The position numbers and the translations under genes are program-made. From assembly GCA_964353135.1 (NCBI GenBank), contig CAYGTV010000001.1, positions 309,497-373,496 on the forward strand: DNA of 64,000 nucleotides, in the 5' to 3' direction. This stretch comes from an uncultured Candidatus Saccharibacteria bacterium (GTDB lineage Bacteria > Patescibacteriota > Minisyncoccia > Phycocordibacterales > UBA918). The notes under the pieces were generated by a model. The model was not told where the DNA came from, ran no database searches, and worked only from the letters and a program-made list of their open reading frames with translations. Position 1 is the stretch's first letter; each line of letters begins with the position of its first letter. Positions 25,744-58,918 of this stretch are shown piece by piece.

Positions 25744-25978
25744 ATACTCTACGTTGTATTAGCTTACAGTGCCCTTTAGCGTGGTGTGCCTCAGGGATGC
25801 GCCATATTGCTACAGCACATTGTAGTTGAGTCTCCACACTCTATCTACAAAAGATCTACTGTAAACATACCCGCTCTGACACAGGCGGCTGACCTGTATG
25901 CGTACACAAAAAACTGCGTACACTCGGCAATTACTAACTGAATTACCTCCATTGCGGATACTCTACCATTGTACTCTG

Positions 25979-26001
25979 CTCGGCTAGCCGAGATTTTGTT
26001 T
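25979..26001 (+). promoter_or_regulatory. GC hairpin plus T-run (plus-strand terminator-like) inside a 600-bp non-coding gap.
   Basis: ctcggc-ta-gccgag (25979-25992) followed by attttgttta. There is no plus-strand gene to terminate, so it could end an antisense or small RNA. Confidence 0.25.
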
Positions 26002-26300
26002 ATACACAAAAATAAAATTTTTTACCAAAATACACTCTCGCTACTGTTGAAATTTCCAAACTTTGGGTAGGAACTGGTAACAAGTGCTACAGCTAACCTA
26101 GCAAGTGAGTCACACAAAGCTGAACCTTTTGAGCTAAGTCCCACCTCGCTCTGCTTTCGTTTCGCTACAGATCGGGTGTTCTCACTTTCGTTCGAAACGG
26201 ATAAAACCTAGCGGACATCATCCATTACTTACTCAACCAACATGCCTGAAGTACAAACCTGAGCCCCACCTATTTTCTTGCCTAGACGGCATAGAAAATT

Positions 26301-26351
26301 CTGGACTCTCGTCCAGAACGGCTAAAAAGCAAAGCCTTTTGCTTTTTAGCC
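26301..26351 (-). terminator. Probable terminator region of the 26346..27446 gene: two hairpins followed on the minus transcript by AAUUUUCUAU.
   Basis: 14-bp A/T-tract stem ggctaaaaagcaaa-gcct-tttgctttttagcc (26320-26351, overlapping the TAA stop). Then ctggac-tctc-gtccag (26301-26316). Confidence 0.35.
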
Positions 26352-27446: not shown

Positions 27447-27449
27447 AGA

Positions 27450-31728: not shown

Positions 31729-31729
31729 A

Positions 31730-33052: not shown

Positions 33053-33053
33053 A

Positions 33054-34652: not shown

Positions 34653-34655
34653 AGG

Positions 34656-37600
34656 TTAATCAGTGATAGCCATAAAGAAGTTGGTTCCTGTATGTGGTGA
34701 ACTTGCTGTACCAAACGGAACCTCAATCCCCCAGTAAATTTGATCACTAACAACCGGAGTGCTGGCTACAGGTTTTTGTAGGTCAACTTCTAAATCAGCC
34801 CCTGTCACAGCTAGTGTTGAGCATCCGATACACGCAGCATAGTCAAACGTTGAGGTTGAGTAGCGCTGTTGAGCTGCTGGGATAACCGAGGTAATACCAT
34901 CAGTCATGTCGGTTCCAGCAACCTGTACGTCAAGTGATTCGTTACCCAGGTTGACTAGCGTCACAAATGGATTGAACGCTCCCGTGTTCTGGTTGATGTC
35001 TACAGTCCCATAAGCAATGGCATTTTGAACATCGAGAGCTCGAAGTGTTAGGACATCAACCCCAACTGAACTACCAAAGGTATTTGCTCCAGAAAGATCT
35101 TCAACCTCCATAAATGCAAACCACTCTTGAGCACCATCCTCATCTGTAGGGTCTGCGTGGTAAGCAAACGGCGCTTCACAGATCAGTGAACATGAGTTGC
35201 CAGAACAATTAACGTAGCTACATGAGCTGGTGGCGATATAACAGTTGTTGTCATCGGGTGTACAGGCTGCCCCAACAGATGTCTTGTAGAAGGTAGTGGT
35301 GGCTGAACCAAGATCGGCAAATCCGTTAAAGTCAGTCACTGTACTTGAAGCTATAATCGTGGTTGTGGCACCTGGAGTCAGACTGATGTCAAATCCATCA
35401 TTGAGTGTTACGGCTGAAATAATTGGATCAAATGCCAGCGTTAACTCTGGGAGATTGCTGTATGAATCCAGGGTAGAGCCATCATCAGTCACCCGGAAGC
35501 AGTATGCGTCATTGCTGGCATTAGCAGTCAGTTGCAAGGCGTATTCTAGCTCTGTGTATCGGTTTTGATCGAGGTCATAGAGAGATGTTTGGTTACTTGG
35601 ACTAGTTACAATTTCTCCAGCTGCAAAATCACCAGCATCAGTGACTAGGTGGTCTGTGGTCGGGTCACCGTTGGTGACGTTTGGCGAAGTAGCCATACAA
35701 ATTGCGCTACTTCCACAGCTTGCAATGTTAGGAACTTCTATGTAATTAGCCGGATTAACTGCTTCACAGGTTGGAGCGGTCAGCTTAGGAGCGAATTCTA
35801 GCTGGAACCGTTGGTTTTCAATCGGCAGTCCTGAGTTTTCAATCGCAAGTCGCAAACGGGCAGTCTCTCCAATCAAGTACCCCCCAGTTGGAGTGTTTTG
35901 AGGATTTGCCCATGTAGCACCTCCATCAACTTGTTTATCTCCCACATATACCCGCGGCCTGGTTTCGGTACGAGGATACGCTACATAGCTATCCCAACCA
36001 CCATTTTGGAACCAGTATGCAAATCCGATGCCACCAGATGTATATGTACTGTCAGTTGCAGTTGTGGTTGCAACCAATTGCCCGGTTGATTCAAAGTACA
36101 CTGCGACGTCGATTGTGTCGTCAGTTTCCCAATCAACGTAGAACTCATACCAACCAGATCCAAACGATCCACTGGTAAAGTTTGCTGGTGATGTGCCTAG
36201 AATTGTTCCAGAGAACTCTGTATTGGCTACGTTACGTACTATAGAGATTCGGTCAGTTCCGATCTGATCAGTACAAATTGCATAGTTTTGATTACTTGCA
36301 ACGGATCCATTTGATGCAAAGATAGTACAAACTTCATCTCCGGTTCCAGAAACAGTATCGATATACTGCATAAATCTAATCGTTTGACCTTGTGAGACAG
36401 TTACATCACTTCGTGCGATTCCGTCAGTTGTTCGATCACCAGTGTTCACAGCTCGCAATGCAAACCCTCCACCATAGGCAGGAGCACCGTTATCAAGCGC
36501 ACTTTCAGTCTCAAAACGAGCAATGTCTCCAGTACCACCGGTGTATTCAGCAATATCATTGTCTTCAAAATCTTCTATCACATCAAAGACGTTTGCACCA
36601 TTACTAGTTGAGGTTGCAGAAACATTTCCGAAATACATGTAGAACTCTGACACACTGTCAGCAGGAAGAGTTGGAGCTTTGATCCAAACAACTGCGTCAG
36701 TGCCGCTGTTGAATGCTTCAATCCAATGGTCAACCAAGGTTACTCCATCCGCAGCTGTAAACCGCAGATCTTCAAAGTCTGACTGCATATCTGCATCATA
36801 TGCTACCGGAATTTTTACAGCGGTGTTTGTGTAAGTCGCAGGATCATCGTTTACGACTCGCACTCGTTGACGAGCTGACCAGTCAGTATCAAACCACTCA
36901 CTATCTAGAGCACCTTCACCTCCGTCATCGTTGCGCCAACGGTAGTTTGTTTGTTCAGTTAGTAGACATTCACTGTCGTCCCAACGGATTGAACTACAAT
37001 CATCCACCCCGTCAACATCAAACGCCTCACCCCAAAGGTTACCGAGCGAACCAGTAAAGCTCCAACTGTTAGTAGTAGTTGCATCAAGCGAAACGTTTAC
37101 TCCGCCAGTGAAGCCACCAGTAGCAAATCCGGTGTTGGCTACCACTACCGAAGCATTGTTATTGATAACACCTGAGACGAGTGTAATGAGGTTTGTGTTA
37201 TTAGCCGCCTGCGTAAAGTAGCCGTTACTGAGTGAAGTAACATTGGTCGTACCAGATATATCTAGTCCGTTTGCAGTTAAATCAGTGATGTTATAGAAGT
37301 TCGCGTTGAGTGTTCCGCTAGTAGCTATCAGATCATATGCGCCGACTCCCTGGTTTTGTACTGACGTGCTAGCCGTTAGAGTACCAACTATCTGCAGACT
37401 GCCACCAGCTAGAGTCACCGCTGAACTACTTGCAATGTACACATTGGCTTGTCGTGGTGACCCGATCACAGCACCGTCAAAGTCAGTAGCAGCGCTCCAG
37501 TATTCGGTTGTGGTTCCAATACGGTAATCGCCATAAATGTAGAGATCGCCATCAACCCCTGCATGATCCTGAGAGTAGAACGACGAAGTTACTGGCACAT

Positions 37601-40600: not shown

Positions 40601-43600
40601 CAACCAGCACGTTACCGTTTCCTTGCAGATCAAACACACTATTATTAGCATCAAGGAAGTGACCTGCGGCAATAGTCAGCACACTTCGCACTGAAGTTGT
40701 GGCAGTTCCAGCTGGAGTTGTGATTCCTGCTGCAACTCCATTTCCGAGCGTGAGACTGTTAAATGTCCACGGTCGCACTCCACCCAACGTGTTGGTACTG
40801 AGAATACGAGTTAACCCACCAGTCAGGTTCACAGTTCCGTCACCACCAAATGAACCACTATTTACTGTTATATTGGCCACTCCACTCACGGTACCAGTCG
40901 CAACTGTGATGCCGGTTTGTGAGATAATCGGTGTTTGCACAGCCCATCCACCATTTGTACCAGTAAAGGTCAAACTGTTGAATGTAATAGTTGAACTTGC
41001 GGCTGAGCCAATTTGCTGCCCTGGGTTGTTTGCGGTAAAGGTAATTGGGCTCGTAGCTCCAGAGAACGTTGCTCCGGTTTCGAGATAGAGTGAACCACCA
41101 ACTGTAATCGGGTCTGAGCCATTAGCCTGCAGCACAGAACCAGCCTTTTGTAGGATTGAGCCATCAGCTGCAGTTGTACCCGAGCCGAGCAAGTCAATCA
41201 CTCCACCTGGTGCAAAAGTCCGGTTATTCCAAACCACTAGCCCTGACCCGTCAGCTACAGTCAATGTATCTGGCGCACCAAGGGTGGCGGTGAACGGTAG
41301 ATCACTTTCGGTAGTCGAGTCAAAGATACTCATGTCGAAAATAGTCAGCGGATCGATATTTGAGTGTCGCACGACTACTCGATCCTGGTAGAGATCCATG
41401 TCATTGATAGCGTTTGCTACTGAAACAGCTGCTGGTCGCAACGCAAACTGACCAACGTTAACATCATCAGTACTACCACCAGTGAGCGTCGCAGCACCGG
41501 TAGCACCGGCAGTCACCATTGATCGTCCAGAGACAGCGAGCAGCCGGTTGTTTGTCACAATATCTTGTCCAAGCGTTTTCCATGGTGCTGCTGGCATATC
41601 CATTGCTCCATCGTCGATTACATACCAACCAGCCAAAACATAGGCGCCTGGCGTCAGTGTAGTGACACTTGGTGCTGCTGGTGTAGAAGTATTTTGTAGG
41701 TTACTCCATACCGGAGCAACGTCAAATACGTTCGTTGCGTCTACGCCATCAAACGAACCAATCCAGTATGAATACTCTTCGGAATTGGTATCGTTACTTG
41801 TAAACGGATAGGTAGTCGGCTCAGCTCCAGCATTAGTGACAACCTTGTACCACAAACTGGTATACATCTGGTTTCCAATCACTTGTAGCTGTTCAGCTGC
41901 AGCAATCCAACCACTTGGCGGTGTGAAATTGAAATCATCTTCTTTTGCTAGCATCATCACCAACACATCACCATTTTCAACTGCAGGACGTTCCACGTTC
42001 ACATCAGCTGCATTGAGTACGTTACCGGTCTCAACTCGATAGTCTCGGAGTGACACTTGCTCAAACGGTGAACCATTATTCCCTAGTGGTGTCTTGGTGA
42101 CTGCGGCTGCCACAATTGAACTCGTTGCAGTTGGGCTGCTAGCTGGACGGAAAGCAAACTGACCAGCGTGAGGATCACGGCTTGAAATCACACCGGTCAT
42201 AGTTGAGCTACCGGTTGGACCTGCAGTTTTCATCAAGCGTGACGCGACACTTAGGTTGTTGTTAGCAGCACTGACGATATTGTCTGCTCGAACGTCCCAG
42301 TTATAGCTTGGCACTACAGTCGTATCGTCATTATCGACATACCACGCAGACAGGACAAGTGATCCGTTAGTGACAGTTGTTAGTTGAGGTGCGTTCGGCG
42401 CCTGTTCATTTTGATACTTAGTCCACACACTCGCCACATCAATCGGCGTAACCGGGTCAACATTAGTAAGTGCACCCATCCAGTAACTAAAGTTTTCACC
42501 GTTATCGTTAAGTGGGAAATCGTAAGTTGCTGGCTCACCCGCGGCAGTAGCTACTCGTCGATACCAAATACCAGTACCAATCTGATCACCGGTTGCGTTA
42601 CCAAGGATATCAACCGCAGTCCAACCAGCTGGTACTGCTCCAAACGCAGTATCATCGTCCTTCCCAACGATCAACACGAGCGTTGTATCATCAATCAAAG
42701 CCGGACGATTTACGGTCAAAAGGTTGCTTGCTACTGATCCGATCCCAGTTGTTTCAGCATAGATACCCACATTAGTTTGAGGTGTAAGTGCACTACTCTC
42801 GATATAGGTCGTAATTTGTGGTTCACCGGTATAGGCAATTCCTGTCACTTCATACGATCCATCTGCAGCACTACATGCAGCCGTGTAACTAGTAACGCCA
42901 TCGAGCACTACAGTAACCACTTCGGTAGAATCGTTACAGACTGGCGCACCCATTGGGGTCACGCCGTCATCTTGGTATACCACCCCTGAAATGGTTACAG
43001 CGAAGTTACTGTCATCCCACTGGACTGACCCCGGATCACCATCATCGTTATCAAACGCTTCTCCATACAAATTACCTGAACCTGCTGAGAAGAGCCAGAA
43101 GGTGCTTGGCACTCCATCTGCGGTCACGTTGTACGTCACCGTCTCAGCTGAAGTTGTGGCATACAGACTAGTTGGATCAGTGAGGTTTTTATACTCGGTA
43201 TCAATCCAGTTCGTACTAGGAATCACGGTGGTGAATCGAAGTTCATCAACATCTATGTCCATATAAGTGCCGCCACCATAGCGTCCAATTTGCAATCCAG
43301 TTTGCGATGGATTCTCACCGGTAGGAGTTTGAGTGTACGAATCACGTAACTGATTATCTTCATAGATCTCAACTGTCTCTCCGTCAATTGCTCGACCTAA
43401 CGTTGTAAAGTGGTGCCAGATTGCTGGGTTTCGGGTGAAGTTGTAGTCATTACCAGATGATTCACCAAACCGGTGATACCCCCGGGTTGCGTTGTCGTAC
43501 CACGGCATAAACGCCAGACAGTTATCATTCACACAGCCAGGGCCAAACTGCCAGAGTGCACCAGTATCAAAAGCAGACTGAAAGTAGAGCCCAGAAGATA

Positions 43601-52600: not shown

Positions 52601-55600
52601 AAAACGCTGCGGTAGTACTACCGACCTGACCAACTTCATACCACTCAGGTGCAAGAGAACACTGCCCAGCCAAAGCACTGGTGTACTCTAACGTGAACGC
52701 GTCTGTCCCCGCAGTTGAGGTAGCATTTAGCAATCTAGCATTCATGCGCAGTCGTAGAACATCACCCTCGGTAACAGCGGCGGCTCCAGTAATGGGCTGC
52801 CCTTCTACAGTTGACTCACTATCACCAACAGACCACGTTGAGGTTGGGGTAAGACTAAGGGCATTTTGATACCACCAGTATGATAACTGCTCATACTCAA
52901 GACCATTGGCTTCTTCCTGTTCTCCAAAAACAGCCGTGACTGCACCACTACCAAATTTACGAGCCTGGACTGCAGTTTGAATATTCTTCTCATCTTGATC
53001 ATCAGCAACATCTTCAAAAATTGCGTAAAATGGTACACCATTGGTGGACACCACCATTGTCCCAGGATCAAAGTTTACAGTATCACCATCACCTGTCCCA
53101 TTTGTAAAGTAAGCCTTACCCGGAGTTAACGCTCCCGGAGTACATGTGCCCGACTCGATCGTTATTCCTAGCGGACTGACCATCTCTAAATCAACTGAAC
53201 CATTATCAGGAGAGCAAACTACTGCTACATAAGCGGCCGAACGAGTGACCGCATAGCGAGTACCAAACTCTTTTTTTGGCCAATAAACCGTCGATTCATT
53301 TCCGTCAGCATCAGCCTGCTGGATAGCTGCAATTGGACCAGTTGCGGCACTCAAACGTACTGCACTACCTGCACCTTCTGCTACCGCAGTACATGAGGTA
53401 TCAACCTCATGATCTCCTCTGGTAATACCAGTGATAGACGCTCCAGATCCAGCCGAACAGGTCATGGTGAGATTTGTACTAGGATCAACCCCACTCATGA
53501 TCATATTGTTCGAAACAATTCCATAAAGTGGGTCTGTAGTTGGAGGGTACGCAACTAAACCGTCTCCTGGATTGGAGCTGCGATGCGAAACTAAGATTGG
53601 AGACGTTGCTTCTACCACTATTCCGTCACCATCAACAATACTAGTGTCTGATCCCCCAGGATTTGTTGTGGAAGTTTCTGAACCATTTTCCAAAATATTA
53701 AATGTTTGATCAGCGACTCCTGAAGCACCAATATATGTACGCACAGTTGTACTCGCAAACGGTGCATACAAATAGGTAATATTATTGGACCGTCTAGTTG
53801 GAAGGGTAAAAGTAGTTGTCGCAAAACTAATCGGTGCCAACATATCGCTACTGTCTGTACCTGCTCCATTAACCGTTGCGGATACTGGTCCGAGGATAGA
53901 CAGTACGCTAGTACCAATCGGACTTGGGCTTGTGATGGTAGTAGTCTCTCCTTGATTAAGATCGATCACTGAACCACCAGACAGCTGCACTTGATTATTA
54001 TCAACGAGACTGGTGACTGAAATAGAATCAGCACCATGATCATCAACTACATAATAGATCTCTGTCAGTTCACTGTAACTAAAGGTCGCTAGTTCGTCAC
54101 TGGTTGATTCAGCCGAACTATTGCCGTAGTACATGTAGATAGTTGTGGTACCAGACGCTGGCAGATCTTTAATCTGCACCCACACCTCTGCCTCTTCTGC
54201 GCCCGAGTCCCAACTAGTAAACCAGTGATCGAGCTCGACTGAATCAATTGGAGCCAATGACTCAACCGTAGAGGTCGCAAAAAACGTAGCTACGTTCGCC
54301 ATGTTTTCATACTCAGTTTCAGCCCACGCCGCTGATCGAACAACGCTGGCAATACGCAACTCATCCAACAACCCTTCAAAGTTCTCACCAGTACTAAAGT
54401 TTCCACCGACAGTATCTTGATCTTGTCCAACCACTAAACCACCAGATGAAATATCGAGCGCGGTGATAGCTTGCGGGTCTGGGTTTTCATTATCTCCGAC
54501 ACCGTTTATATAAATGTTCATCTCATCAATATCATCTTGGGATGTGGTGATGTAATGCTGCCACGTATTGTTAGCATAATTAACAACTGAATCTGACAGG
54601 TTAAATTCTTCAGCGCTACCTTGTGAGTACAAGTACATTCGAATGTTGTTGTCGAAACGAACCCAGAATTCATTAGCCTGAGAAGCATTTGCACCGCTTA
54701 AAATTGTCATGTCATCAGTTGTAGATGCGATGTGCCACCAAGACACACTGTTGTCAGTGAGTCCATCCATCACTTCCGACGGCAAACTAATATAGTCGAT
54801 TGAGTTTAAACCAAACTCCTGCCCAGCTCCAAACAAACCAGTTTTGCCAGTAGCACTAATCTCATCGTTTCCGTGATACCGATTACTAGTTGAGTCGATG
54901 TACGCATTGAGATTACCAGTACCGGCCAGATTCTCCTCTAAGTGATATACCGCCTGGAAGCCATTGGTCCAAACATTTTCGGAGCCAAAGGTATCGTCAC
55001 GATCGTATGCAATTGCATCTTGGTTATCAAAATAAATATAAAACTCATTATCTTCACCGTCAGTTAGATCAGTTTTGAAATACAGCTCACCGGTTTGAGC
55101 TCCCGTATTAATATTTACTAGTTCGTGCGGAACTTCTGTAAAACCATTCCCAAGCGTCACCCGAATATCACGTCCGTCAGTTGCTACACGATTAAAGAAG
55201 TCAGCACCAAGGAGTGACAAATCAAGGTATACCGGGAAATCTGCAATTGAAGCCGTGATATCTGCGTCAGCGATCGTAAACAGTTGTCTGCCATCCCAAC
55301 TAGTACTGTACCAGCGTAAATCATCACCAAGGATGGTGGTAGAAATCAAAGCTGTCGAAGTTGCGTAAAATGTATTAGGGGTGTTTTGGTTATCAAATTC
55401 AGTTGCAATCCACGAACTACTGCGAACCACGTTAGAGAAGCGGATCTCATCAATTAACCCATCATAGTGCTGGTTAGCTGCTCCAGAGTTCAGACAGCTG
55501 GTATCTTGTTCAAGCCCTGCCAACGTACAGTTGGCTGGTACAGATAGAGCACTCATGGTTTCTGGTAATGGGTTTTGATTATCAGCCACACCGTCAATAT

Positions 55601-58600
55601 ATAGTCGCCACCCATCAGTGACAGCATCTCGAATTACTGTCATGTGCTTCCAGCCAGCACCTACTACTGCACTATCCAAGGCAAATGTATCGCTTGTACC
55701 TCCGTTAAATAGCGTCAGGTTGTTGTTCTGTAAAAATACAATCAATTCATTATTGGCGCCGGCGTTCAAAATCGCCTGATCTCCAGTCTGTGACGTATTG
55801 ATCCAGAATGACATCGACAACTCATCATGAGCATTGACCACTGCACTCGGGAATAAAATATAATCGTCAAGGGTGGCTTCGCGTGCTCGAATTTCTTGCC
55901 CACTACCCACCTTACCAGTTTTACCTGTTGAGTTAATTTCGTCATCTGCATCGTAATTATTACTAGTGGAGTCAACATATAGTCCAGCATTACCTAGACC
56001 AGCCGCATCCTCTTCTAAGTGGTAAGTAGCCACAAAGTTGTTGGTCCACACATTTTGTGCACCATAGGTATCAGTGTCAACATACGCCGTTGCAGCTGCA
56101 TTATTATAATAAATATGGAACGTATTATCAGATGACGCACTCAACGAAGGTGCCAAGAAGTGCAATTCCCCAGTATCACTACCGGTATCGATAGATACTA
56201 AATCAAATGGTGTTTCGGTAGCCCCATCAGCTAGAGTAACGCGGATATCTCGCCCATCTGACTGTACGCCAGCCCAGAAATCAGGCCCCAGGTCAGCGAG
56301 ATCAACAAAGACCGGGAAGTCAGTCAGGGTTGAATCAACGCTACTGGCTGGGATCGTCACAGCTACTCGGCCAAGCCAGCTTGGGTCATAGTTGTTATCA
56401 ACATCAGCTATAGAGTTGCCTTCAGCAAAGAGGTTTCCAGCATTTATCTCCTGGATAAACCGCACGTCTCCCCCGTCTGCCTTAACATTAGCCCAGAAAT
56501 CTGTCATTGTACTGTCAAGCTGAAGCTGTACTTGGAACTCGGTTTGATCAGCGCCGGTCGGGTTAGTGATTTCAATTGGCATTTTATACTGCCACTGTGA
56601 TGACCAAAATGGATCAAGTAGTCCGTACTCATTATCTCCAATTGCTTCAATCCAATACTCTCCAGTTGAAAAGGCTGGGAAGCTGATATCCATTTTGAAA
56701 TACACTGTTTCACCCGGATCAATAGTAAACTCTTGATCAGCGTGCACTCGGCCTTCAAAATTATCAGGAATCTCTTTGCGATCCGGTCCAAAACCAAGAA
56801 GGGCTGCCGCTCGCCTAAAGATACTGCCACGACTAATCGTACCATCATTGATTTCAACCGGATCCCAACCTCGAGCATAGCGAGTCACCTCGTGATCTTT
56901 GACTTTCTGAGTGACAACACAGGCTGTACCATCACCTTCGATTGATTCACAAGCACGGACCACACTTGTCTGACTACAGCTAAATGTTTCTGTCGCTACT
57001 TCAACCTGCTCCTCGGCTGTAGTTGTGGCAAGCCCTGTAGTCGTCGAAGCAGCCGTAGTGCTACTAGATGCCAGGTCGGCTGAAAGTGTCTCAATTGTGT
57101 CAGCTGTAGGAGCTGTAACCTCACTTGGACTCCACCCAGCTTCACAGTGGTACACGTATGGTCGGTACTCTGGAATGACAGCTTGGCGAGGCTTGTTAAG
57201 ATTAAACACTTCAAGGTTAGTTACCTCTCCTAAATCATTAGGGAAATAGGTTTGTACCGAGAAATCATCTTGCTGGCCACTAGTGTTTGTGACACTAAAA
57301 TAGGTAGTTGCCTCAGATAGACCTTCGTATGTTTTTTGATCAGACTTTATGATCAGTGTCTCGTCTGTGTTGTTATCAGTAAAGGTGAATTCAATCTCAG
57401 TACCGTCTCCAAGAACCAAAATATCACCAGACAAGTTTGACGCTTCGAATCCGTCGTCTGCCAGCAACTCTTCAAATAGTGGATCAACTGGATCAACTGG
57501 TGGTTCAAGCACAAACAGCTCTAACCAGACACTTTCAACAAACAGGTCGGCCAACAAGTCAGGATCAGCATCGTACCGAAGTTCTACTTGCAAATTGCCT
57601 AATGTAGCAGGATCAGTAATAGTTGGTAGTGCAAACAAGAAATACCCACCATTGATACTGTTTGAAACCTCGTCTTCAATTACAATCGATCCACCAGTAC
57701 TCCATGACTCTCCTCCATCAAACGAGTAATTCATTGTGAATGACGGGATCAGTTCACGAGTTTCGCGCTGCTTGGCTGCAAATGACATCCGTAGCTGGGC
57801 TCCTGAAAGTTCCGAACCTTCTTCGATCGGGTAACCAAAATTTCCAACCCGCAGAACATACCCTTCGCAATCGGTATCGCAGTTTACTGCCGCTGCCTCC
57901 ACCACTTCCACTTCGGTTGATGTGGCTGCGTTGTCACTCATTCCTGTTTCTGCCGTAGTGGTCGAGGGAGAGCTGGTCGCTGTTGATTCTGGTTCAGCAA
58001 CCACCTCAGGTACAACTTCAAGTGAATCCTGTGTCGTACTGGTCATATCAAGTACCTGCTCTGGTGTATTTGTTGCGACTTCACTATCAGCCGTAAATCC
58101 AAACACAACTTCTGCTTCTGACTGTACATCATCAACTGGTGGAAGATCATTCGCCTCCGAGACATCTTCTTCTGGCTCAGCATTTGATGTTGCAGATGTA
58201 CTTGAGAACGTCTGCGTAAGAGTATCAATTGCAAGCCTGAAAAGACCTCGCACTTCTTTTAGTACGGTGGTGGTTGCAGATTCTTGTGACTCATCGGCGC
58301 CCACTTCCTCTTCGCCTACCACTTCAGGTTCAGCGGTTTCAGCCGACTGCACAGGAGCTTCAGTTGAAGTTACCTCTTCTGATGACTGCCCAGTAGTAGT
58401 TGTTGCTACTGCTTCTGGCGCAAGAGTCTCGACTGTTGATGAAGGAGTCGAAGAAGCTGGCTGTGAATTATCTGGAGTCACTTGTCTATCGACGCCAAAC
58501 TCACTTTCAACGTCAGAAGATTCATCTGGGGTTTGATTGTTTGTATCTCCAGCGATGGTTCGCAGTTTGCCAAGTGTGGCAGAGTTGATTGCATTAAAAT

Positions 58601-58832
58601 CTTGTAACAGCGCGTACTCGTCCAAGTTTTGAAAGTTTAGAGTTTCAACGTTCTCCCAGCCATTTGAACTGATTTCGCTTGGGAAAATATGAACAGTTCG
58701 AACCACATACGCGTCGTTTGAAAGTTGTGCATACGACGAAATACCCACCCCAAAGATAAGGGCGCTAACAACAGCATAAAGCATTGTTTTTTTGCGCTGT
58801 TTTAGTAGCTGTAACATTCGTAATATCCACAA
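34656..58832 (-). CDS. Giant surface protein (8058 aa; 24.2 kb). Signal peptide, acidic S/T/E-rich stalk, about nine DUF2341-like modules each followed by a LamG/ConA-like lectin-fold domain, beta-helix-like G/T-rich repeat tracts, one 'YRWRNDDGGEG' module, and a Cys-rich conserved C-terminal domain shared with the 644-aa protein.
   Basis: Uninterrupted ORF. Example DUF2341-like module: WLGRVAVTIPASSVDSTLTDFPVFVDLADLGPDFWAGVQSDGRDIRVTLADGATETPFDLVSIDTGSDTGELHFLAPSLSASSDNTFHIYYNN. Another: DLRFTAADGVTLVDHWIEAFNSGTDAVVWIKAPTLPADSVSEFYMYFGN. LamG-like module ends: LDELRFSNVVRSSSWIATEFDNQ, LDELRIASVVRSAAWAETEYEN. The start is 83 nt downstream of the previous gene; the stop is 4 nt before the FN3 gene. 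Confidence 0.85.
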   Translation of the reverse strand: MWILRMLQLLKQRKKTMLYAVVSALIFGVGISSYAQLSNDAYVVRTVHIFPSEISSNGWENVETLNFQNLDEYALLQDFNAINSATLGKLRTIAGDTNNQTPDESSDVESEFGVDRQVTPDNSQPASSTPSSTVETLAPEAVATTTTGQSSEEVTSTEAPVQSAETAEPEVVGEEEVGADESQESATTTVLKEVRGLFRLAIDTLTQTFSSTSATSNAEPEEDVSEANDLPPVDDVQSEAEVVFGFTADSEVATNTPEQVLDMTSTTQDSLEVVPEVVAEPESTATSSPSTTTAETGMSDNAATSTEVEVVEAAAVNCDTDCEGYVLRVGNFGYPIEEGSELSGAQLRMSFAAKQRETRELIPSFTMNYSFDGGESWSTGGSIVIEDEVSNSINGGYFLFALPTITDPATLGNLQVELRYDADPDLLADLFVESVWLELFVLEPPVDPVDPLFEELLADDGFEASNLSGDILVLGDGTEIEFTFTDNNTDETLIIKSDQKTYEGLSEATTYFSVTNTSGQQDDFSVQTYFPNDLGEVTNLEVFNLNKPRQAVIPEYRPYVYHCEAGWSPSEVTAPTADTIETLSADLASSSTTAASTTTGLATTTAEEQVEVATETFSCSQTSVVRACESIEGDGTACVVTQKVKDHEVTRYARGWDPVEINDGTISRGSIFRRAAALLGFGPDRKEIPDNFEGRVHADQEFTIDPGETVYFKMDISFPAFSTGEYWIEAIGDNEYGLLDPFWSSQWQYKMPIEITNPTGADQTEFQVQLQLDSTMTDFWANVKADGGDVRFIQEINAGNLFAEGNSIADVDNNYDPSWLGRVAVTIPASSVDSTLTDFPVFVDLADLGPDFWAGVQSDGRDIRVTLADGATETPFDLVSIDTGSDTGELHFLAPSLSASSDNTFHIYYNNAAATAYVDTDTYGAQNVWTNNFVATYHLEEDAAGLGNAGLYVDSTSNNYDADDEINSTGKTGKVGSGQEIRAREATLDDYILFPSAVVNAHDELSMSFWINTSQTGDQAILNAGANNELIVFLQNNNLTLFNGGTSDTFALDSAVVGAGWKHMTVIRDAVTDGWRLYIDGVADNQNPLPETMSALSVPANCTLAGLEQDTSCLNSGAANQHYDGLIDEIRFSNVVRSSSWIATEFDNQNTPNTFYATSTALISTTILGDDLRWYSTSWDGRQLFTIADADITASIADFPVYLDLSLLGADFFNRVATDGRDIRVTLGNGFTEVPHELVNINTGAQTGELYFKTDLTDGEDNEFYIYFDNQDAIAYDRDDTFGSENVWTNGFQAVYHLEENLAGTGNLNAYIDSTSNRYHGNDEISATGKTGLFGAGQEFGLNSIDYISLPSEVMDGLTDNSVSWWHIASTTDDMTILSGANASQANEFWVRFDNNIRMYLYSQGSAEEFNLSDSVVNYANNTWQHYITTSQDDIDEMNIYINGVGDNENPDPQAITALDISSGGLVVGQDQDTVGGNFSTGENFEGLLDELRIASVVRSAAWAETEYENMANVATFFATSTVESLAPIDSVELDHWFTSWDSGAEEAEVWVQIKDLPASGTTTIYMYYGNSSAESTSDELATFSYSELTEIYYVVDDHGADSISVTSLVDNNQVQLSGGSVIDLNQGETTTITSPSPIGTSVLSILGPVSATVNGAGTDSSDMLAPISFATTTFTLPTRRSNNITYLYAPFASTTVRTYIGASGVADQTFNILENGSETSTTNPGGSDTSIVDGDGIVVEATSPILVSHRSSNPGDGLVAYPPTTDPLYGIVSNNMIMSGVDPSTNLTMTCSAGSGASITGITRGDHEVDTSCTAVAEGAGSAVRLSAATGPIAAIQQADADGNESTVYWPKKEFGTRYAVTRSAAYVAVVCSPDNGSVDLEMVSPLGITIESGTCTPGALTPGKAYFTNGTGDGDTVNFDPGTMVVSTNGVPFYAIFEDVADDQDEKNIQTAVQARKFGSGAVTAVFGEQEEANGLEYEQLSYWWYQNALSLTPTSTWSVGDSESTVEGQPITGAAAVTEGDVLRLRMNARLLNATSTAGTDAFTLEYTSALAGQCSLAPEWYEVGQVGSTTAAFSGFNNTTVADGSQIPTSLLASTTVLATYEERNFSDFVPVDIGTGQVAEWDWVITASNIEVNTNYCFRMVRVEEGDFTNYTVYPELETVGPPNTPLPISFFDNENTPAIIPTLTFVASDIAGDDVNYEIQIDNDADFSSVELQRDSETNFLLFEEADGGADKSPFVSGEVIRFTAATPLPATTTYWWRVRASDPEGSATSSDWSTPYSFTIDTNVTVSEWLQTTGDQFATNGLSNITVAAGQANLSGGTGIITSTPIDFDDATVGNAWGEVSWNETETSGSLSVQIEYNNNGTWTLVPATLIPGNDIGIASSPVSILGLDTSIYNEIRLVATLTGTTVSLQDWKVTWGQRVETPDLGDPFDNQKTANTLPVFDFVSSDPQGDDLEYEISFSTSFNFTAATSTFNSGVDAGFANTANGADTSPFVSGDRLTYTTQAGSPFADGTTYWWRVRAKDPAGGDAWSPWSVPDSFTVDTGVTLSTWFQTTRDQFNQGFLDGTTAVSGGSVVVSEDIGEYGRVTATNNEWQTVVTSLDYTDMVVVASPEFNFNTTDNSRTARIRNKTENSFEIKVDNYLNSFTGSTEVDYIVMEAGDWVINNGAGGFRVVAATQESVTDKQVNAYSDVVGTVVPISPAFSAPPTVLATVASDNDSDWVASHVDGGGSFQSEVTTSQLRLSLAISKFTGSTHIGAEDIDYMLFEVATGVVDGTRFQARNSADAITHIESATALTGFTTAPAVTVVHNNGDDGAEGGFAQKDLGTASTNVNLFTSISEMGPTADNHAANIISIVAFEDASGLIKRDITTGGLVSTIAGEDIIFSDGAGPKFENFSWVDTTPGASEITYQMQYRVSEGEYALIPDVALPGNSTGFTSSPIDLTTIDIDVYDQIRPFATLECASGNCPQINEWQVEWSEGVNMSGRIFQPNRQTPLSGASLYDPAWLGSLELVIPAANVDETLTDYPIYVDLADLGPDFWSGVQSDGRDIRVTLGDGSTETPFDLVSINTATDTGELHFLAPTLSSVTDNTFYIYYNNATATAYAAASTYGSENVWVNGYDLRYALDDDPTSSGLQLDSTDNGNDAVSYTGMTAGDVVTGQIGQAINHDGNDGGIFGSALTYSGEFSASMWWRSTGDGFAISKNAGADEKFGPWSSPAGRNFARVIAGGASDTSVNSPTDGTWSHVVLTRDSANKVDVYIDGTRTRMFSDAAQVGNSTWENFGGQTSQGFQGDLDELRFANVKRSDGWITTEYANQLDPTTFYATSSAASLIVGQIRAAVNAVPLASVGTIAIDGTWNLTNVTAFAGDTITVWIDDAADDKEAVTVFRYDGLGDITGVKLHEQHVAIDANEIGTLSNLQFGLYDNSVSGDEDIFFDVDGSNNLTICAVGTCDNSNLYVGPGQTYIPATSTTVTINTHDFVNDGTIELDANTFNLTGSWTNNATSSADTSTVNLIASTGAETISSTESPLRFHNLGFGGFGTATFTPSVGLDLSGSLTVATGTLDRTGFDISIAGSLVTEFGGVWFGTGTTTFDGAGARSWTDRSAGLQNIGNVVIDGPSTVLSVTTDVSAYDIRIGANDTLVGGTGNTINVGGDWLNQGNFSAQTSTVRLVADDRVYPPIIPGSSDWYGDNAFDKRVAVVVDSAEVNAPLTNFPMFVDLSTLGAAFWSDVKSDGGDIRVTASDGQTELPIDLVAIDTTAQTGELHFLADSVSDIADTTFYIYFDNPAANRYANAATYGRDNVWVDYKAVYHFADDPTAVSNTIVDATGNGFNLTVLIEGLATSTGQLGTAFDFNGSTGYLSDPDFFWTAGDPLTTSGWYFMSAASNEAYWEWGDNAQPDNIEFRPWYQTTNGLHYFGQTGGATYSINPRDTTRWYHFTTLGATSTSADNLVYQNAIEVERVAQSVANPQNTLTGLKVGREGTGGSINAILDEFRVTTETRSQAWIEAEYLNQFRPNLFYSTTSPQTYQPDVLLDEATHNITAGGASFYNFTMDDSVTTAAFLSTSVSVNNDFTVATGTIALPTGTLTIGGSFTNTGVFMHNNGEVRFSSTGPESITLSGTEFLNAFNNVTFNGVGTYTFTEVNATTSNNMIINAGSVVFPSDGLTIGGRLDVNGGGFNANGGTVTFTSSESELISTNGSTFNNVIFGDLSAGSGWYNTDWNNRIEVTIDAGMVDADLTNYPVYVNLAHLGSTFWSGVGNSGNDIRVTTADGVTEVPVEVVDVSTGDDSGEIHFLAPAVSSFADTTFYVYYNNPDAVAYDVTDPYGRNAVWREYEAVYHFVRDPAVGFVDVTGNGKDLAPLVGLADQATGLMGTALDTTTGNVMVGDADWTWTAGEDLVSSGLYFMSTVDDVALWQFGTTCTGDNCLAFLPWYDSVDRGYNRFGETSGNDYRFTRDSLNWHHFTTLGRATDGAQVEIYEDGVIRDFYAQTATGQNPSQTGLQIGRYNTGNYGQILIDELRFATTTRSNEWITTEFENFTNAVNFYSTSSESYLDVASSFTLDESVTTVLGDLTVNFANLVAPTSNLLIGGSALNTGGTFDPNSATTTFNSTDTGETVEFGKGAFYNLSFNGVGGGWSIATTTVTNNASLVTGADFTLQSGNTMTVGGQFTNTFASAATTWAGSTLVLTGGDYTITGRLDEGDDYARMIVSNDSDLVLWNSTVSTSTVRDTSSLYMPDYADIDGTLQIYGQYERTTGTEHWSYATDFDGTDLTGVERAVTVQMGRGAELSFGTSTTLNVVGVSGNETTVSSLSGIYTLGVTAGTVAIDYASFSNIGPAGLELRSGTTIDTLANSAFAVAGGRTGITADAATINLQPSAEYTNMVFSTSSANSIYEPAWADQVVVTVLASEINETLEQFPLYVDLSTLGAGFWAGVQSDGRDIRVTTSNGVELPFDLVEINTANQTGELHLLAPTLSSVENTAFYIHFANPAAVAYAPTDEFGAQAVWVNYEAVYHFNEDPTVRITDVSGNQRDLFPTVGTPATTSGQLGTALDTTATNVMLANSGWTWEAGDDLVSSGLYFQSAFDTGALWQFGPGCVNDNCLAFMPWYDNATRGYHRFGESSGNDYNFTRNPAIWHHFTTLGRAIDGETVEIYEDNQLRDSYTQTPTGENPSQTGLQIGRYGGGTYMDIDVDELRFTTVIPSTNWIDTEYKNLTDPTSLYATTSAETVTYNVTADGVPSTFWLFSAGSGNLYGEAFDNDDGDPGSVQWDDSNFAVTISGVVYQDDGVTPMGAPVCNDSTEVVTVVLDGVTSYTAACSAADGSYEVTGIAYTGEPQITTYIESSALTPQTNVGIYAETTGIGSVASNLLTVNRPALIDDTTLVLIVGKDDDTAFGAVPAGWTAVDILGNATGDQIGTGIWYRRVATAAGEPATYDFPLNDNGENFSYWMGALTNVDPVTPIDVASVWTKYQNEQAPNAPQLTTVTNGSLVLSAWYVDNDDTTVVPSYNWDVRADNIVSAANNNLSVASRLMKTAGPTGSSTMTGVISSRDPHAGQFAFRPASSPTATSSIVAAAVTKTPLGNNGSPFEQVSLRDYRVETGNVLNAADVNVERPAVENGDVLVMMLAKEDDFNFTPPSGWIAAAEQLQVIGNQMYTSLWYKVVTNAGAEPTTYPFTSNDTNSEEYSYWIGSFDGVDATNVFDVAPVWSNLQNTSTPAAPSVTTLTPGAYVLAGWYVIDDGAMDMPAAPWKTLGQDIVTNNRLLAVSGRSMVTAGATGAATLTGGSTDDVNVGQFALRPAAVSVANAINDMDLYQDRVVVRHSNIDPLTIFDMSIFDSTTESDLPFTATLGAPDTLTVADGSGLVVWNNRTFAPGGVIDLLGSGTTAADGSILQKAGSVLQANGSDPITVGGSLYLETGATFSGATSPITFTANNPGQQIGSAASSTITFNSLTFTGTNGGWAVQTPIISQTGITVATGTVSGVANITVNSGSFGGDGTVNLTGGLTRILSTNTLGGVRPWTFNSLTLGNGVAAGITTPAGTATTSVRSVLTIAAGHFLDANNSVFDLQGNGNVLVETGSFLEDISTIRYSGATPNVRQTPYYNLVIDTDRGGVVNATAPITGLQVLNNLRVGVLGTSTLNATINDPAVSVGANVSIGTLGTLIASDIRTMTVNGSWNNDGVFTANNGTTTFARTSGSATIAAGNSPFGKLNITGAANYSIVESATTTGRTSLGASVTGFTLNPGLTLSVAGNFSNLMPDAATTWTGSTLKLTSGTAFTINTKATGDTYDTIVTEAGTHPRLWNSTTTVVTTAPNSSLYSMDHQRVDGNLLIYGDFISAAGADHWSYATDFDGATLGVPRIADVRIEDGGSVLYTGGSLTVLGTSTASTTIMAQGAGPYSMTIGGTATVDMQYYTVRDIVSDGLVLTGTPNVVDLSRGDFEVAFAGGSAMTVGGSVIGANPAKNFTNNRFATTTTINAFNVTATGTSISSWRFVNVDGNLDGEAKDVDPGGDPGYLVWTDSAAIIDISGTVYQNDRSAISTICDGVTNNLRLSIQGLTFASTSCAVGTGDYTFTDIGFGPSDTLTVYIDGEAIQAATVSKDPISLIGDMDLYENHVIVRHESAGAQTIAAMSVYDSSDDADIPFTAVDAGTDTLTLPADFTLLVWANKNFQPGGDVTISGGGSGSSYDGSLELLTGADYIAANGETHSVGGDIVTAAGSLLAPAQSAFDFTAAGAGRTLDFNEAVLFDVTFSGSGDWTITDPTFTAGNDVVISNGDLTLPTGTSTVAGSFENTGGSFDANGGVLYFTATDLGNVVRFGGSTADTVLFSGVGAWSFADVVATTTQSFTVATGTVTLPSGTLIVGEDFVVTDTITHNGGTVQVVGTTGGNIITLSGNDLTNLTVTATGGDYTLTDPSAALLGNLTLSDGALTVGTGTVSIGGSFDVSGGVYNNGLGTLLFNSADGGEFIDPGANDLYNLVIAGAGGWTLIDNATTTNNFAITNAGTFTVNPGSRVYVGNVFTNTVGGAATTWTGTTLVLDGGNQYETNVKVTATESYDILTLGENTDVSSWNTSATTLNVPVTSSFYSQDHAGVDGDLYIYGDYRIGTTTEYWSAATDFDGAVIGSPRQANVYIASSSAVTLAGGSLQIVGTLTASTSVQNQGVGAYDLIATSGTLNANFYNITDLTANGLDISGTTNVTSLSNGYFTQAANNTNLITLVSGVINNNASVVVANTGFATGGFTGGVNVSLDATTTNSWSFTGSLGNLWGEAFDVDGVDDCSSIRWDDSECLLTEQTNYRWRNDDGGEGALDSEWFDTDWSARQRVRVVNDDPATYTNTAVKIPVAYDADMQSDFEDLRFTAADGVTLVDHWIEAFNSGTDAVVWIKAPTLPADSVSEFYMYFGNVSATSTSNGANVFDVIEDFEDNDIAEYTGGTGDIARFETESALDNGAPAYGGGFALRAVNTGDRTTDGIARSDVTVSQGQTIRFMQYIDTVSGTGDEVCTIFASNGSVASNQNYAICTDQIGTDRISIVRNVANTEFSGTILGTSPANFTSGSFGSGWYEFYVDWETDDTIDVAVYFESTGQLVATTTATDSTYTSGGIGFAYWFQNGGWDSYVAYPRTETRPRVYVGDKQVDGGATWANPQNTPTGGYLIGETARLRLAIENSGLPIENQRFQLEFAPKLTAPTCEAVNPANYIEVPNIASCGSSAICMATSPNVTNGDPTTDHLVTDAGDFAAGEIVTSPSNQTSLYDLDQNRYTELEYALQLTANASNDAYCFRVTDDGSTLDSYSNLPELTLAFDPIISAVTLNDGFDISLTPGATTTIIASSTVTDFNGFADLGSATTTFYKTSVGAACTPDDNNCYIATSSCSYVNCSGNSCSLICEAPFAYHADPTDEDGAQEWFAFMEVEDLSGANTFGSSVGVDVLTLRALDVQNAIAYGTVDINQNTGAFNPFVTLVNLGNESLDVQVAGTDMTDGITSVIPAAQQRYSTSTFDYAACIGCSTLAVTGADLEVDLQKPVASTPVVSDQIYWGIEVPFGTASSPHTGTNFFMAITD

Positions 58833-58863
58833 CTCAACAAGAGCTTGCGGCGTAGCTAAAGTA

Positions 58864-58918
58864 TAACGCGCGCCCCCTTGCGGAAGCGCGCGTTATCCTC
58901 TATTTTCTGTTGTTTTTA
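58864..58918. promoter_or_regulatory. GC-rich hairpin with a plus-side T-tract between the cohesin-like gene and the giant gene.
   Basis: taacgcgcgc-(12-nt loop)-gcgcgcgtta (58864-58895), then atcctctattttctgttgttttt on the plus strand. There is no U-tract on the minus transcript, so it is not a canonical terminator for the flanking genes. Confidence 0.3.

Follow-up and report, generated by a model that had tools for sequence, protein, structure and literature searches.

On its reverse strand, on which all of the features described below lie, the 64-kb window (the whole stretch of DNA analysed here) carries a single uninterrupted reading frame at positions 34656..58832, which is 8058 codons long from a TTG, as the first-pass annotation of this DNA had claimed. 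The probable start is the ATG at 58817 (codon 6), giving a product of 8053 aa (residue numbers are counted here from the TTG), and an independent gene call on a Logan contig starts at the same ATG. The computed mass is 852.9 kDa and the computed pI is 4.05; the earlier estimate was about 830 kDa. Residues 6–35 (58728..58817) form a Sec-type signal peptide with a basic n-region, a hydrophobic core and an SYA/Q site. It is the only hydrophobic segment in the protein, and a Sec signal is also present in the Kaiserbacteria orthologue P0001 (VHA/Q). The Sec signal, the single hydrophobic segment, the paired cysteines and the predicted all-β fold are in keeping with an extracellular protein.

The encoded protein is repetitive, and public MAGs often carry its gene in pieces or cut at contig ends. 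Both observations could point to an assembly artefact, the 24-kb frame being a chimera or a collapse over internal repeats and no such protein existing, a concern that had also been raised earlier and is now largely answered. The longest exact internal DNA repeat in the gene is 24 nt and its modules (see below) are only 46–59% identical at the DNA level, a divergence too great for an assembler to mix them up. A second assembler produced Logan contig ERR3534985_6326 (28,784 bp, possibly built from the reads that also underlie the window), which carries the 8053-aa gene call and is identical to the window as read outside the 4.3-kb middle at 44653–48915. An orthologue on the closed chromosome CP060229.1, from a Nanopore and Illumina hybrid study (PMC8518188), is collinear over 4,090 aa (one HSP, 62% identity, 4,105 columns), and another metagenome holds a collinear orthologue of about 7,980 aa with one frameshift. 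Moreover, the frame is open over at least 4,090 aa in 51 of 55 other species, and family members of 5,300–7,700 aa are common. The reading frame is intact, and an artefact is extremely improbable: this is a genuine gene of an uncultivated member of the Paceibacteria (Parcubacteria/CPR) related to ‘Ca. Kaiserbacteria’ and ‘Ca. Nomurabacteria’.

A two-domain module, in which a DUF2341-like N-domain is followed by a ConA/LamG domain, occurs in six copies. Modules 1 (55323..56390, aa 815–1170), 2 (54240..55310, aa 1175–1531) and 3 (48807..49814, aa 3007–3342) pass the Pfam gathering cut-off for Laminin_G_3 (PF13385, 27.6 bits) with 58.6, 54.7 and 48.6 bits, respectively; module 2 also matches Pentaxin (40.4 bits) and gives a marginal pentraxin match in the PDB sequence search. 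No Laminin_G_3 match above threshold was found in modules 4 (46719..47753, aa 3694–4038), 5 (45144..46172, aa 4221–4563) and 6 (43119..44144, aa 4897–5238): module 6 reaches 16.2 bits, and modules 4 and 5 give no match even at E ≤ 1. These three modules align with modules 1–3 through a common LDELRF..W..TEY end, with BLAST cross-matches at E < 1e-6; module 4 is homologous to modules 1–3 by alignment and HMM, and modules 5 and 6 are assigned by internal homology. The motifs FPxxVDL, DIRVT, LDELRF and WxxTEY reported previously are all present. The N-domains stay below the DUF2341 cut-off (PF10102, 23.4 bits) in modules 1 (22.9 bits), 3 (18.0 bits) and 4 (18.6 bits) and have no match in modules 2, 5 and 6. 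Yet hhalign relates the module N-domain to DUF2341 with a probability of 97.2% (E 4e-11, 91 columns), and by this profile–profile comparison the N-domains are true DUF2341 homologues that form a divergent subfamily below the Pfam threshold. The DUF2341 protein P0017 of a Promethearchaeota is a detectable homologue of the module.

Whole modules share 46–59% identity in DNA and 30–54% in protein. The figure of about 70% DNA identity between repeats that had been proposed is reached by the N-domains of modules 1 and 3 only, with a range of 53–72% for the N-domains alone. Likewise, the earlier count of about nine modules requires aa 745–800, 1532–1590 and 7318–7435 to be included, and the description of the protein as built from such modules does not stand: the six modules span about 2,050 of the 8,053 residues (about 25%), and they vary across the family. 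They are accessory lectin-type units on a conserved scaffold rather than the building principle of the giant.

The three additional segments belong to two canonical DUF2341 domains. One of these lies near the C-terminus (69.0 bits at aa 7352–7427). The other is split by an insertion of about 730 aa that holds modules 1 and 2, its first half being at 56433..56600 (aa 745–800) and its second half at 54063..54239 (aa 1532–1590; 51.9 bits at aa 1532–1586). In a splice test, aa 742–797 joined to aa 1530–1600 scored 66.2 bits over profile positions 1–67, compared with 51.9 bits over positions 13–67 for the second half alone; the spliced halves, aa 1532–1586 and aa 7352–7427 all exceed the PF10102 gathering score. 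Modules 1 and 2 thus appear, as judged by the splice test, to sit as an insertion in a loop of this canonical DUF2341. The Pfam profile search that had been proposed as a check finds both families, DUF2341 at 69 and 51.9 bits and Laminin_G_3 in modules 1–3, the opposite of the outcome that had been named as refuting.

The remainder of the chain is scaffold. An acidic, S/T/E/V-rich low-complexity linker, read from the sequence, occupies aa ~90–320 (57873..58565). Internal repeats and weak Ig_Rha78A_N matches delimit an fn3/Ig-like domain, a domain that we call rep2300 and a second fn3/Ig-like domain at aa 2165–2560 (51153..52340), and internal repeats reveal a second rep2300 copy at aa 2860–2995 (49848–50255); these fn3/Ig-like and rep2300 domains recur in 27 of 28 family representatives of at least 5,300 aa. 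A pair of orphan domains of about 230 aa each (rep5300a/b; aa 5330–5800, 41433..42845) is confined to the closest clade, with four unannotated matches. It is followed by a long G/T/N-rich repeat region (aa 5801–7289, 36966..41432), a suspected β-solenoid that is kept in every orthologue; shorter stretches of this type lie at aa 3343–3693, 4039–4220 and 4564–4896.

The most conserved part of the protein is its C-terminus, a cassette of about 770 aa (aa 7290–8058, 34659..36965) composed of the canonical DUF2341 domain (aa 7318–7435), a jelly roll resembling CBM66 and L-type lectins (aa ~7430–7640), Ig-like domains and a Cys-rich terminal unit. It ends 1 aa before the C-terminus, and it lies at the extreme C-terminus in all 42 representatives with a full cassette (0–8 aa from the end); identities are 40–68% at full coverage. 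The protein contains 42 cysteines, 14 of them within the last 560 residues, and 14 cysteines are invariant over 45 orthologues. The terminal unit (aa ~7821–8056, 34665..35372) is homologous to the C-terminal part of p644, a 644-aa protein encoded at 28486..30420 with an N-terminal TM anchor and 14 cysteines: BLASTP aligns aa 7885–8057 of the giant with aa 440–637 of p644 (E 1e-11), and hhalign aligns aa 347–636 of p644 with aa ~7821–8056 of the giant (99.4% probability, E 1.5e-21). The Cys-rich C-terminal domain that the first-pass annotation had noticed in both proteins is thus real, and these alignments extend it.

Downstream of the giant, seven genes follow on the same strand. A 532-aa protein with two fn3 domains and an N-terminal signal or anchor (33054..34652) starts 3 nt past the stop of the giant. 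Next come an ABC ATPase (457 aa) and a MacB_PCD/FtsX permease (404 aa, four hydrophobic segments), identified by domain search at 30514..33103, then p644, and finally p314 (signal and C-terminal TM), p366 (DUF4215, Big_6/7 and dockerin) and p379 at 24604..28394. The same order and strand recur among 80 related loci, with the fn3 protein in 79 (directly downstream of the giant in all 79), the ATPase in 75, the permease in 69, p644 in 79, p314 in 58 and p366 in 55; the lower counts broadly go with loci having short downstream flanks. The ATPase and the permease share 70–87% identity in the main group of related loci. No MFP or TolC gene was found near this ABC system. Several neighbours of the giant carry cohesin or dockerin modules, and Pfam finds neither in the giant itself. 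Proteins of this kind had been described as often near MotA/TolQ/ExbB genes; no such domain was detected by Pfam in the giant or in the scanned ORFs of at least 150 aa, and no such gene lies within the 64-kb window. The window is also devoid of type IV pilus machinery (T4P ATPase, TadC, PilM–Q) and of any credible pilin-type leader in a scan for the G-F/Y-T/S-L-I-E motif, and the genes called at three orthologous loci likewise include no T4P, MotA or ExbB gene.

The giant belongs to a large, widespread and barely described family of Paceibacteria giant proteins, encoded by tiny, probably host-dependent CPR bacteria. Defining this nameless family by the cassette of about 770 aa at the extreme C-terminus, we found 440 loci in GTDB species-representative genomes, and in 51 of 55 loci the frame stays open over the 10 kb upstream. 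The 42 cluster representatives with the C-terminal cassette have a median length of 5,760 aa, a maximum of 7,696 aa and 0–5 modules; a typical length is 5,300–7,700 aa. The present protein is the longest sampled member and, with six modules in a family range of 0–6, also has the most. A signal peptide, an acidic linker, fn3/Ig-like domains, orphan domains, G/T-rich repeats over about 1,500 aa or more and the C-terminal cassette make up the common scaffold. The GenBank fragments P0001, P0037, P0040 and P0044 are direct orthologues (51–70% identity). Another orthologue fragment, P0100, is named ‘MotA/TolQ/ExbB proton channel’ in GenBank, a name most likely propagated from the Pfam description. 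GenBank entries named ‘DUF2341 domain-containing protein’ come from Ca. Kaiserbacteria, Paceibacterota and Minisyncoccia. It is true that proteins over 8000 aa are rare, as had been stated, but this family routinely reaches 5,300–7,700 aa, and prokaryotes are known to encode proteins of more than 40,000 aa (PMC13104272).

Structure prediction indicates that two regions of the giant are predominantly β. The AF2 model of the N-domain of module 1 has a pLDDT above 90, and that of modules 1 and 2 matches ConA-like folds in Foldseek (neurotoxin HCN, trans-sialidase lectin and neurexin LNS); the cassette model (pLDDT 92) is all-β. The fold matches of these regions comprise lectins, CBMs, adhesin lectin domains and phage receptor-binding proteins, and Foldseek also returned S-layer, mastigoneme and RbmA matrix proteins. 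The best explanation of the whole, to which we give a probability of roughly 60%, is a genuine giant gene with a conserved family and operon and with accessory lectin-type modules, the product of which is a glycan-binding surface fibre. The giant would most likely be a long attachment fibre on the cell surface, the lectin-type modules of which would recognize surface glycans of a host or partner cell; the number and sequence of the modules would tune binding specificity. Through its conserved C-terminal part the fibre would be held by membrane proteins that the cell itself encodes in the operon, with p644, TM-anchored and carrying a copy of the terminal domains of the giant, as the best docking candidate, and the MacB-type transporter may add assembly or mechanical work from the membrane.

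Other readings of the same data have to be weighed against a glycan-binding fibre. The strong conservation of the scaffold and cassette, a locus layout that is constant in hundreds of species and the Foldseek matches to S-layer and matrix proteins would all suit a structural part of the envelope, either S-layer-like or a shape or spacing fibre, in which the lectins bind the cell's own wall polymers and no host is bound; the conserved cassette lectin could indeed bind a conserved self glycan. However, the lectin modules vary from 0 to 6 copies and diverge rapidly, a pattern that resembles adaptation to external ligands that vary, and a single 850-kDa chain is unlikely as a lattice-forming subunit. 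We regard this reading as unlikely; it is also compatible with an adhesin that binds the wall of its own cell through its base. Were the ConA-like domains GH16-type glucanases or lyases and the G/T-rich regions catalytic β-helices, the giant could be a secreted complex degrading polysaccharides or cell walls for feeding or predation. This is distinctly unlikely: family-level Pfam, NCBIfam and PDB sequence searches found no glycoside hydrolase, lyase or peptidase family over the 8,058 aa, and the top fold matches (CBM66, legume and L-type lectins, neurotoxin HCN and neurexin LNS) are non-catalytic.

A role at a type IV pilus, as a tip adhesin or component, or coupled to MotA/TolQ/ExbB as in the Pfam description and some GenBank names, is suggested by the large archaeal DUF2341 proteins of T4P loci (arCOG03508), which have been modelled as pilus-tip proteins (Makarova et al., 2016; PMC4858521), by the name of P0100 and by a weak TadE/G-like match in p644 (17.4 bits). 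The archaeal proteins are likewise large, secreted, often paired with ConA/LamG and proposed as adhesins. The giant, however, is 5–10 times larger, has a classical Sec signal and a MacB-type ABC neighbour, and lacks pilin leaders and T4P, MotA or ExbB genes in the window and at the three orthologous loci; the Tad match is below threshold, and the GenBank name is probably inherited. Such a role is thus very unlikely. Finally, the size, secretion and filament-like repeats recall CdiA/FhaB-type proteins, and other giant proteins of Patescibacteria frequently carry FhaB domains (PMC11809585), so that a toxic C-terminus might be considered, the giant then being a polymorphic toxin or a protein for contact-dependent delivery (CdiA/Rhs/MafB-like). 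Yet the C-terminus is the most conserved part rather than a variable one and is predicted to be all-β and lectin/Ig-like, no FhaB/TPS, Rhs, PT-TG or toxin family match was found in the giant (including Haemagg_act and Fil_haemagg, by Pfam and NCBIfam), and the gene downstream encodes the conserved fn3 protein instead of a small immunity protein, which makes a toxin highly improbable.

The RTX/T1SS giant adhesins of Gram-negative bacteria are near-megadalton proteins in which a long extender carries sugar- or protein-binding modules, with an ABC transporter encoded nearby. In CPR cells, an outer membrane is presumed to be absent. In giant RTX adhesins such as MpIBP, LapA and FrhA, ligand-binding domains reportedly project from ‘split domains’, as Graham et al. 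are said to have described in 2024. The giant shares the plan of a long extender with binding modules, the ABC transporter encoded nearby and the placement of binding units in a loop of a β-sandwich ‘split domain’, as with modules 1 and 2 in DUF2341. It differs in its N-terminal Sec signal, in an ABC transporter of MacB/FtsX rather than HlyB type with no MFP or TolC, and in an extender of G/T-rich rather than tandem Ig-like repeats; no HemolysinCabind or related RTX match was found by Pfam. The lectin-domain adhesins SraP and Aap of Gram-positive bacteria, and CBM66, are only 7–14% identical in sequence, and the giant has no LPXTG or serine-rich repeat architecture. The Omnitrophota and Oscillospiraceae giants (West-Roberts et al., 2023; PMC13104272) are also very large, multi-domain secreted proteins of small or predatory uncultivated bacteria, but they can exceed 40,000 aa, are linked to cell-wall degradation and belong to another phylum with other domain content, and no sequence relationship was detected. 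A close precedent is a survey of Patescibacteria that counted 149 proteins above 4,000 aa, 82 of them with FhaB and/or DUF2341, and proposed that the DUF2341/FhaB giants act in adhesion or in interaction with hosts (Dutkiewicz et al., 2024; PMC11809585). Phylum, Pfam domain, a length above 4,000 aa and proposed role are the same; however, the proteins were only counted there, its focal proteins (6025 and 4939 aa) are of FhaB type, and the cassette, the variable lectin modules and the downstream ABC operon were not described. Large fn3/ConA surface proteins are candidate host-recognition factors in other CPR (PMC13059738). Giant DUF2341 proteins of Patescibacteria have already been noted; of greater interest as a lead is the conserved operon.

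Little is known of how CPR/Patescibacteria recognize and hold their hosts, and few of the lineages have been cultivated. A gene of about 24 kb takes up roughly 2% of a genome of about 1 Mb, the size of the related closed genomes, and its maintenance intact with the same six or seven partners over hundreds of species argues for an important function. In public MAGs, many family genes are broken up, cut short or wrongly named ‘MotA/TolQ/ExbB’, and the cassette together with the fn3/MacB-ABC/p644 operon provides a signature for finding and correctly annotating them. The lectin modules are the variable part and are therefore natural candidates for determinants of host specificity, and the high-confidence cassette model supplies defined pieces for binding assays. 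Going beyond a glycan-binding fibre, the giant and its seven downstream genes might form a conserved, undescribed surface apparatus specific to Paceibacteria, in which p644, as a membrane-anchored paralogue of the giant's C-terminus, and a MacB-type ABC mechanotransducer would hold, assemble or actuate a host-capturing fibre of about 850 kDa studded with lectins, and in which gain and loss of modules, some of them nested in split domains, would set the host range. This extension is tentative and we hold it to be doubtful, but, if true, much of the CPR would have a defined machine for host attachment that is open to testing.

The giant protein is encoded at 34656–58832 (minus strand) by a single ORF, listed with 8058 codons from a TTG, from which residues are numbered here, and closed by a lone terminal stop on translation. 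The start is likely to be the ATG at codon 6 (58817); an independent prediction on a public contig is 8053 residues long, and the N-terminus of a Ca. Kaiserbacteria orthologue (P0001) aligns with the protein from this ATG onward. The product (852.9 kDa, pI 4.05) is T/G/A/S-rich and contains 42 cysteines, nearly all as close pairs. Its sole hydrophobic segment lies in a Sec signal peptide (aa 6–35: KQRKK, hydrophobic core, SYA↓Q). The ORFs of at least 200 aa in the window share the same strand, bar one plus-strand ORF within the giant coding region, and the GC content is even (0.42–0.50). Between the stop of the upstream 510-aa gene and the giant start codon lies a 14-bp perfect GC-rich hairpin (~58865–58905, minus strand; MFE −42.4 kcal/mol, z = −5.2 versus shuffles), which may serve as an attenuator or stabilise the RNA; it was not flagged in the terminator scan because the U-tract that follows is weak.

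That the 24.2-kb frame is an assembly artefact is barely credible, and its description as a single uninterrupted ORF in the first-pass annotation stands. The Logan contig ERR3534985_6326 (28,784 bp) exactly matches the corresponding window span in length, yields the 8053-aa call and is 100% identical over the two stretches compared (24.5 kb; window 33002–44652 and 48916–61785); since the window may come from the same run, this match is a check on the assembler, not on the data. No exact repeat within the gene exceeds 24 nt, and entire modules share just 46–59% DNA identity, which leaves an assembler nothing to collapse. Moreover, a single collinear HSP without a frame break joins the giant (aa 3968–8058) to aa 6–4090 of the orthologue in CP060229.1, the closed chromosome of Ca. 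Nomurabacteria HK-STAS-PATE-25, at 62% identity. The HK-STAS genomes derive from Nanopore and Illumina hybrid assembly, which gave six complete circular Patescibacteria genomes (PMC8518188). A more distant orthologue (L004; ENA contig k141_2483748) is collinear from the N-terminus to module 6; its annotation in two pieces (1372 and 6607 aa) is explained by one frameshift at the position equivalent to aa 1432/1433.

About nine modules pairing a DUF2341-like domain with a LamG-like domain had been proposed. Motif scans, chunked self-BLAST and HMMs made from the internal repeats recover this module type, but in six complete copies (30–54% protein identity): M1 (aa 815–1170), M2 (aa 1175–1531), M3 (aa 3007–3342), M4 (aa 3694–4038), M5 (aa 4221–4563) and M6 (aa 4897–5238). 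The LamG assignment exceeds the Pfam Laminin_G_3 threshold in M1–M3 only (58.6, 54.7 and 48.6 bits, respectively); M4–M6 fail it (16.2 bits or no match) and align to the first three through the common LDELRF..W..TEY end. The giant has no fewer than seven domains with a ConA fold of the lectin/CBM type. Although the module N-domains score under the Pfam DUF2341 cut-off (22.9, 18.6 and 18.0 bits versus 23.4), they reach 97.2% probability (E = 4e-11, 91 columns) when compared profile against profile with the canonical domain from 45 orthologues, so that the ‘DUF2341-like’ label is correct; judged by these profiles, they are a divergent DUF2341 subfamily.

The two strong Pfam DUF2341 matches both lie outside the modules, at aa 7352–7427 (69 bits) and aa 1532–1586 (51.9 bits). 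The latter spans only profile positions 13–67, and the absent N-terminal part is found at aa 745–800. Splicing aa 742–797 to aa 1530–1600 raised the score from 51.9 to 66.2 bits and extended the coverage to profile positions 1–67, which shows one canonical DUF2341 (halves aa 745–800 and 1532–1590; window 54063–56600, minus strand) to be broken by about 730 residues that hold modules 1 and 2. L004 keeps this nested insertion. In an AF2 model of aa 742–1600 (pLDDT 77; module N-domains above 90), strands are present in each half of the putative nested fold.

The remaining architecture comprises an acidic S/T/E-rich linker (aa ~90–320), two fn3/Ig-like domains with two copies of the internal repeat domain rep2300 (aa 2165–2995), two adjoining orphan domains of ~230 aa (aa 5330–5800) and G/T/N-rich repeat regions (aa 3343–3693, 4039–4220, 4564–4896 and 5801–7289; ~2,350 aa in total), which we suspect to be β-solenoids. 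Searches of Pfam, NCBIfam and PDB sequences left about half of the protein unassigned, and no anchor motif was found. Another large secreted protein, of 2047 aa (12249–18392, minus strand) and without any Pfam match, carries three copies of an Ig-like domain present at aa ~7642–7802 of the giant; giant aa 1978–2214 also match it, and its C-terminus is homologous to a 379-aa protein (p379; 24604–25743).

The last ~770 residues (aa 7290–8058: DUF2341, jelly roll, Ig-like domains and Cys-rich end), termed the cassette, define a family. Scanning GTDB species-representative genomes with an alignment of the cassette identified 440 loci. The best 80 of these all cover it fully (42–63% identity) and belong to Patescibacteria MAGs labelled Nomura-, Kaiser-, Sung- or Adlerbacteria, Parcubacteria or Paceibacteria. 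Of the 55 loci whose flank is complete, 51 keep the frame open across the whole 10 kb upstream, hence for at least 4,090 aa; of the 25 with a shorter flank, 24 keep it open up to the contig end. Searched exhaustively with a profile, 1.84 billion cluster representatives yielded 2,015 proteins at E ≤ 1e-30. A near-full cassette is present in 42 of the best 145, always 0–8 residues from the C-terminus; the median length of these 42 is 5,760 aa (maximum 7,696 aa; at least 5,000 aa in 27). At 8,053 aa, the giant is the longest among the matches listed, yet no outlier. According to HMMs built for this analysis, the cassette and G/T-rich segments occur in all representatives of at least 1,500 aa, and nearly all long ones (27/28 at 5,300 aa or more) also have fn3-like and rep2300 domains, whereas the number of ConA modules varies from 0 (most members of 5.3–6.6 kaa) over 2 and 4 to 5 (P0148, 7,696 aa) and reaches 6 in the giant. 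With a near-constant scaffold and 0–6 modules, the latter are accessory, copy-variable insertions: the protein does contain them, but is not built from them as first proposed. The extra modules largely account for its being the longest member. In public MAGs (L005, L006 and L007, with the fragment P0100) annotation often breaks the orthologous gene into numerous short ORFs on one strand, or into pieces of 2998, 2498, 60 and 983 aa, and contig-end cuts are frequent. With genes fragmented, cut or misnamed, the family is under-counted in protein databases.

Downstream lies a seven-gene block (24604–34652, minus strand) that recurs in nearly all of the loci L008–L087. It encodes, in order, a protein with two fn3 domains (532 aa, starting 3 nt past the giant's stop), an ABC ATPase (457 aa), a MacB_PCD/FtsX permease (404 aa) and proteins of 644, 314, 366 (DUF4215, Big_6/7 and dockerin) and 379 aa. 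Among the best 80 of the 440 loci, these recur in the same order and strand in 79, 75, 69, 79, 58, 55 and 37, respectively; judged overall rather than gene by gene, the lower counts coincide with short downstream flanks. The ABC and FtsX proteins are 70–87% identical within the main group of loci. The ABC_tran domain of the ATPase (31730–33103, minus strand) stops near residue 191 and is followed by a long C-terminal extension without a Pfam match. Since the listed ORF begins at a TTG and overlaps the fn3 gene by ~50 nt, translation probably begins further downstream. In a distant subgroup (L068, L073, L074, L076, L080, L082–L085 and L087) the neighbours are just ~38–60% identical; most loci have an extra ~1.1 kb between the giant and fn3 genes (3.6–6 kb in two, none in L083), and in three the gene resembling the 510-aa neighbour is downstream, not upstream. 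Upstream, the succession of dockerin protein, HSP20 and ~510-aa protein also occurs in a Kaiserbacteria MAG, where the contig end truncates the giant. The C-terminus is invariant across the family, as are the membrane-protein and ABC neighbours; the giant is its variable-length member.

A cohesin/dockerin network surrounds the giant (20256–23481, 26346–27446 and 58916–62996, minus strand), which itself contains neither domain. Cohesins occur in 592-aa and 251-aa neighbours (the latter also with a sub-threshold dockerin/EF-hand match) and dockerins in 366-aa and 667-aa proteins, whose C-terminal halves are 43% identical; the N-terminus of the 592-aa protein, where its cohesin lies, has homologues in a 510-aa and a 350-aa protein. 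Paralogues with a signal peptide and a C-terminal TM segment lie at 9688–12232, 27450–28394 and 63371–63859 (minus strand): they comprise the 314-aa protein, one of 329 aa, one of 550 aa with a LytR_C domain and, at the window edge, a fragment of 162 aa. The window's only clear housekeeping genes are tRNA-guanine transglycosylase and an FKBP-type PPIase (5529–7279, minus strand). Next come an AI-2E family transporter and a redoxin; the remaining ~55 kb encode almost exclusively secreted or surface proteins on one strand.

We propose, with a probability of about 0.6, that the giant is a surface fibre that binds glycans of a partner cell. Specificity would be supplied by the divergent, copy-variable modules, two of which the split DUF2341 would project sideways off the fibre. 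‘Split domains’ of RTX adhesins, reported by Graham et al. in 2024, are said to project ligand-binding domains, and the nested modules 1 and 2 may be analogous. Operon proteins would tether the conserved C-terminal part to the cell, the obvious candidate being the 644-aa protein, which is TM-anchored and has a copy of the terminal domains. MacB-family transporters (FtsEX, LolCDE and MacAB) act through mechanotransmission to extracytoplasmic partners, so a role of the MacB-type transporter in assembly, release or actuation is conceivable.

A fibre with a purely structural role in the envelope is unlikely, and an enzyme complex slightly more so, even though ConA folds are also found in GH16-type enzymes. 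Association with a pilus or ExbB is very improbable: the MotA/TolQ/ExbB genes that the first-pass annotation named as frequent neighbours of known DUF2341/LamG giants are absent from the 64-kb window, as are T4P machinery and pilin-type leaders. One orthologue fragment (P0100) is named ‘MotA/TolQ/ExbB proton channel’ in GenBank, best explained as carried over from a Pfam description. A polymorphic toxin appears less plausible still.

Giant DUF2341 proteins of Patescibacteria were known before. Among 149 NCBI Patescibacteria proteins above 4,000 aa, 82 contain FhaB and/or DUF2341, and a role in adhesion or host interaction was proposed for such giants (PMC11809585); the present protein is a record-length member of this class of DUF2341 giants, and far larger prokaryotic proteins exist (PMC13104272). 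Archaeal DUF2341 proteins were suggested to be pilus-tip adhesins (PMC4858521), and large fn3/ConA surface proteins of other CPR are candidate host-recognition factors (PMC13059738). In the searchable literature we found no description of the cassette with its fn3/MacB-ABC/644-aa operon signature across hundreds of species, of 0–6 variable lectin modules or of the split DUF2341; all three go beyond the first-pass annotation and deserve specialist attention.
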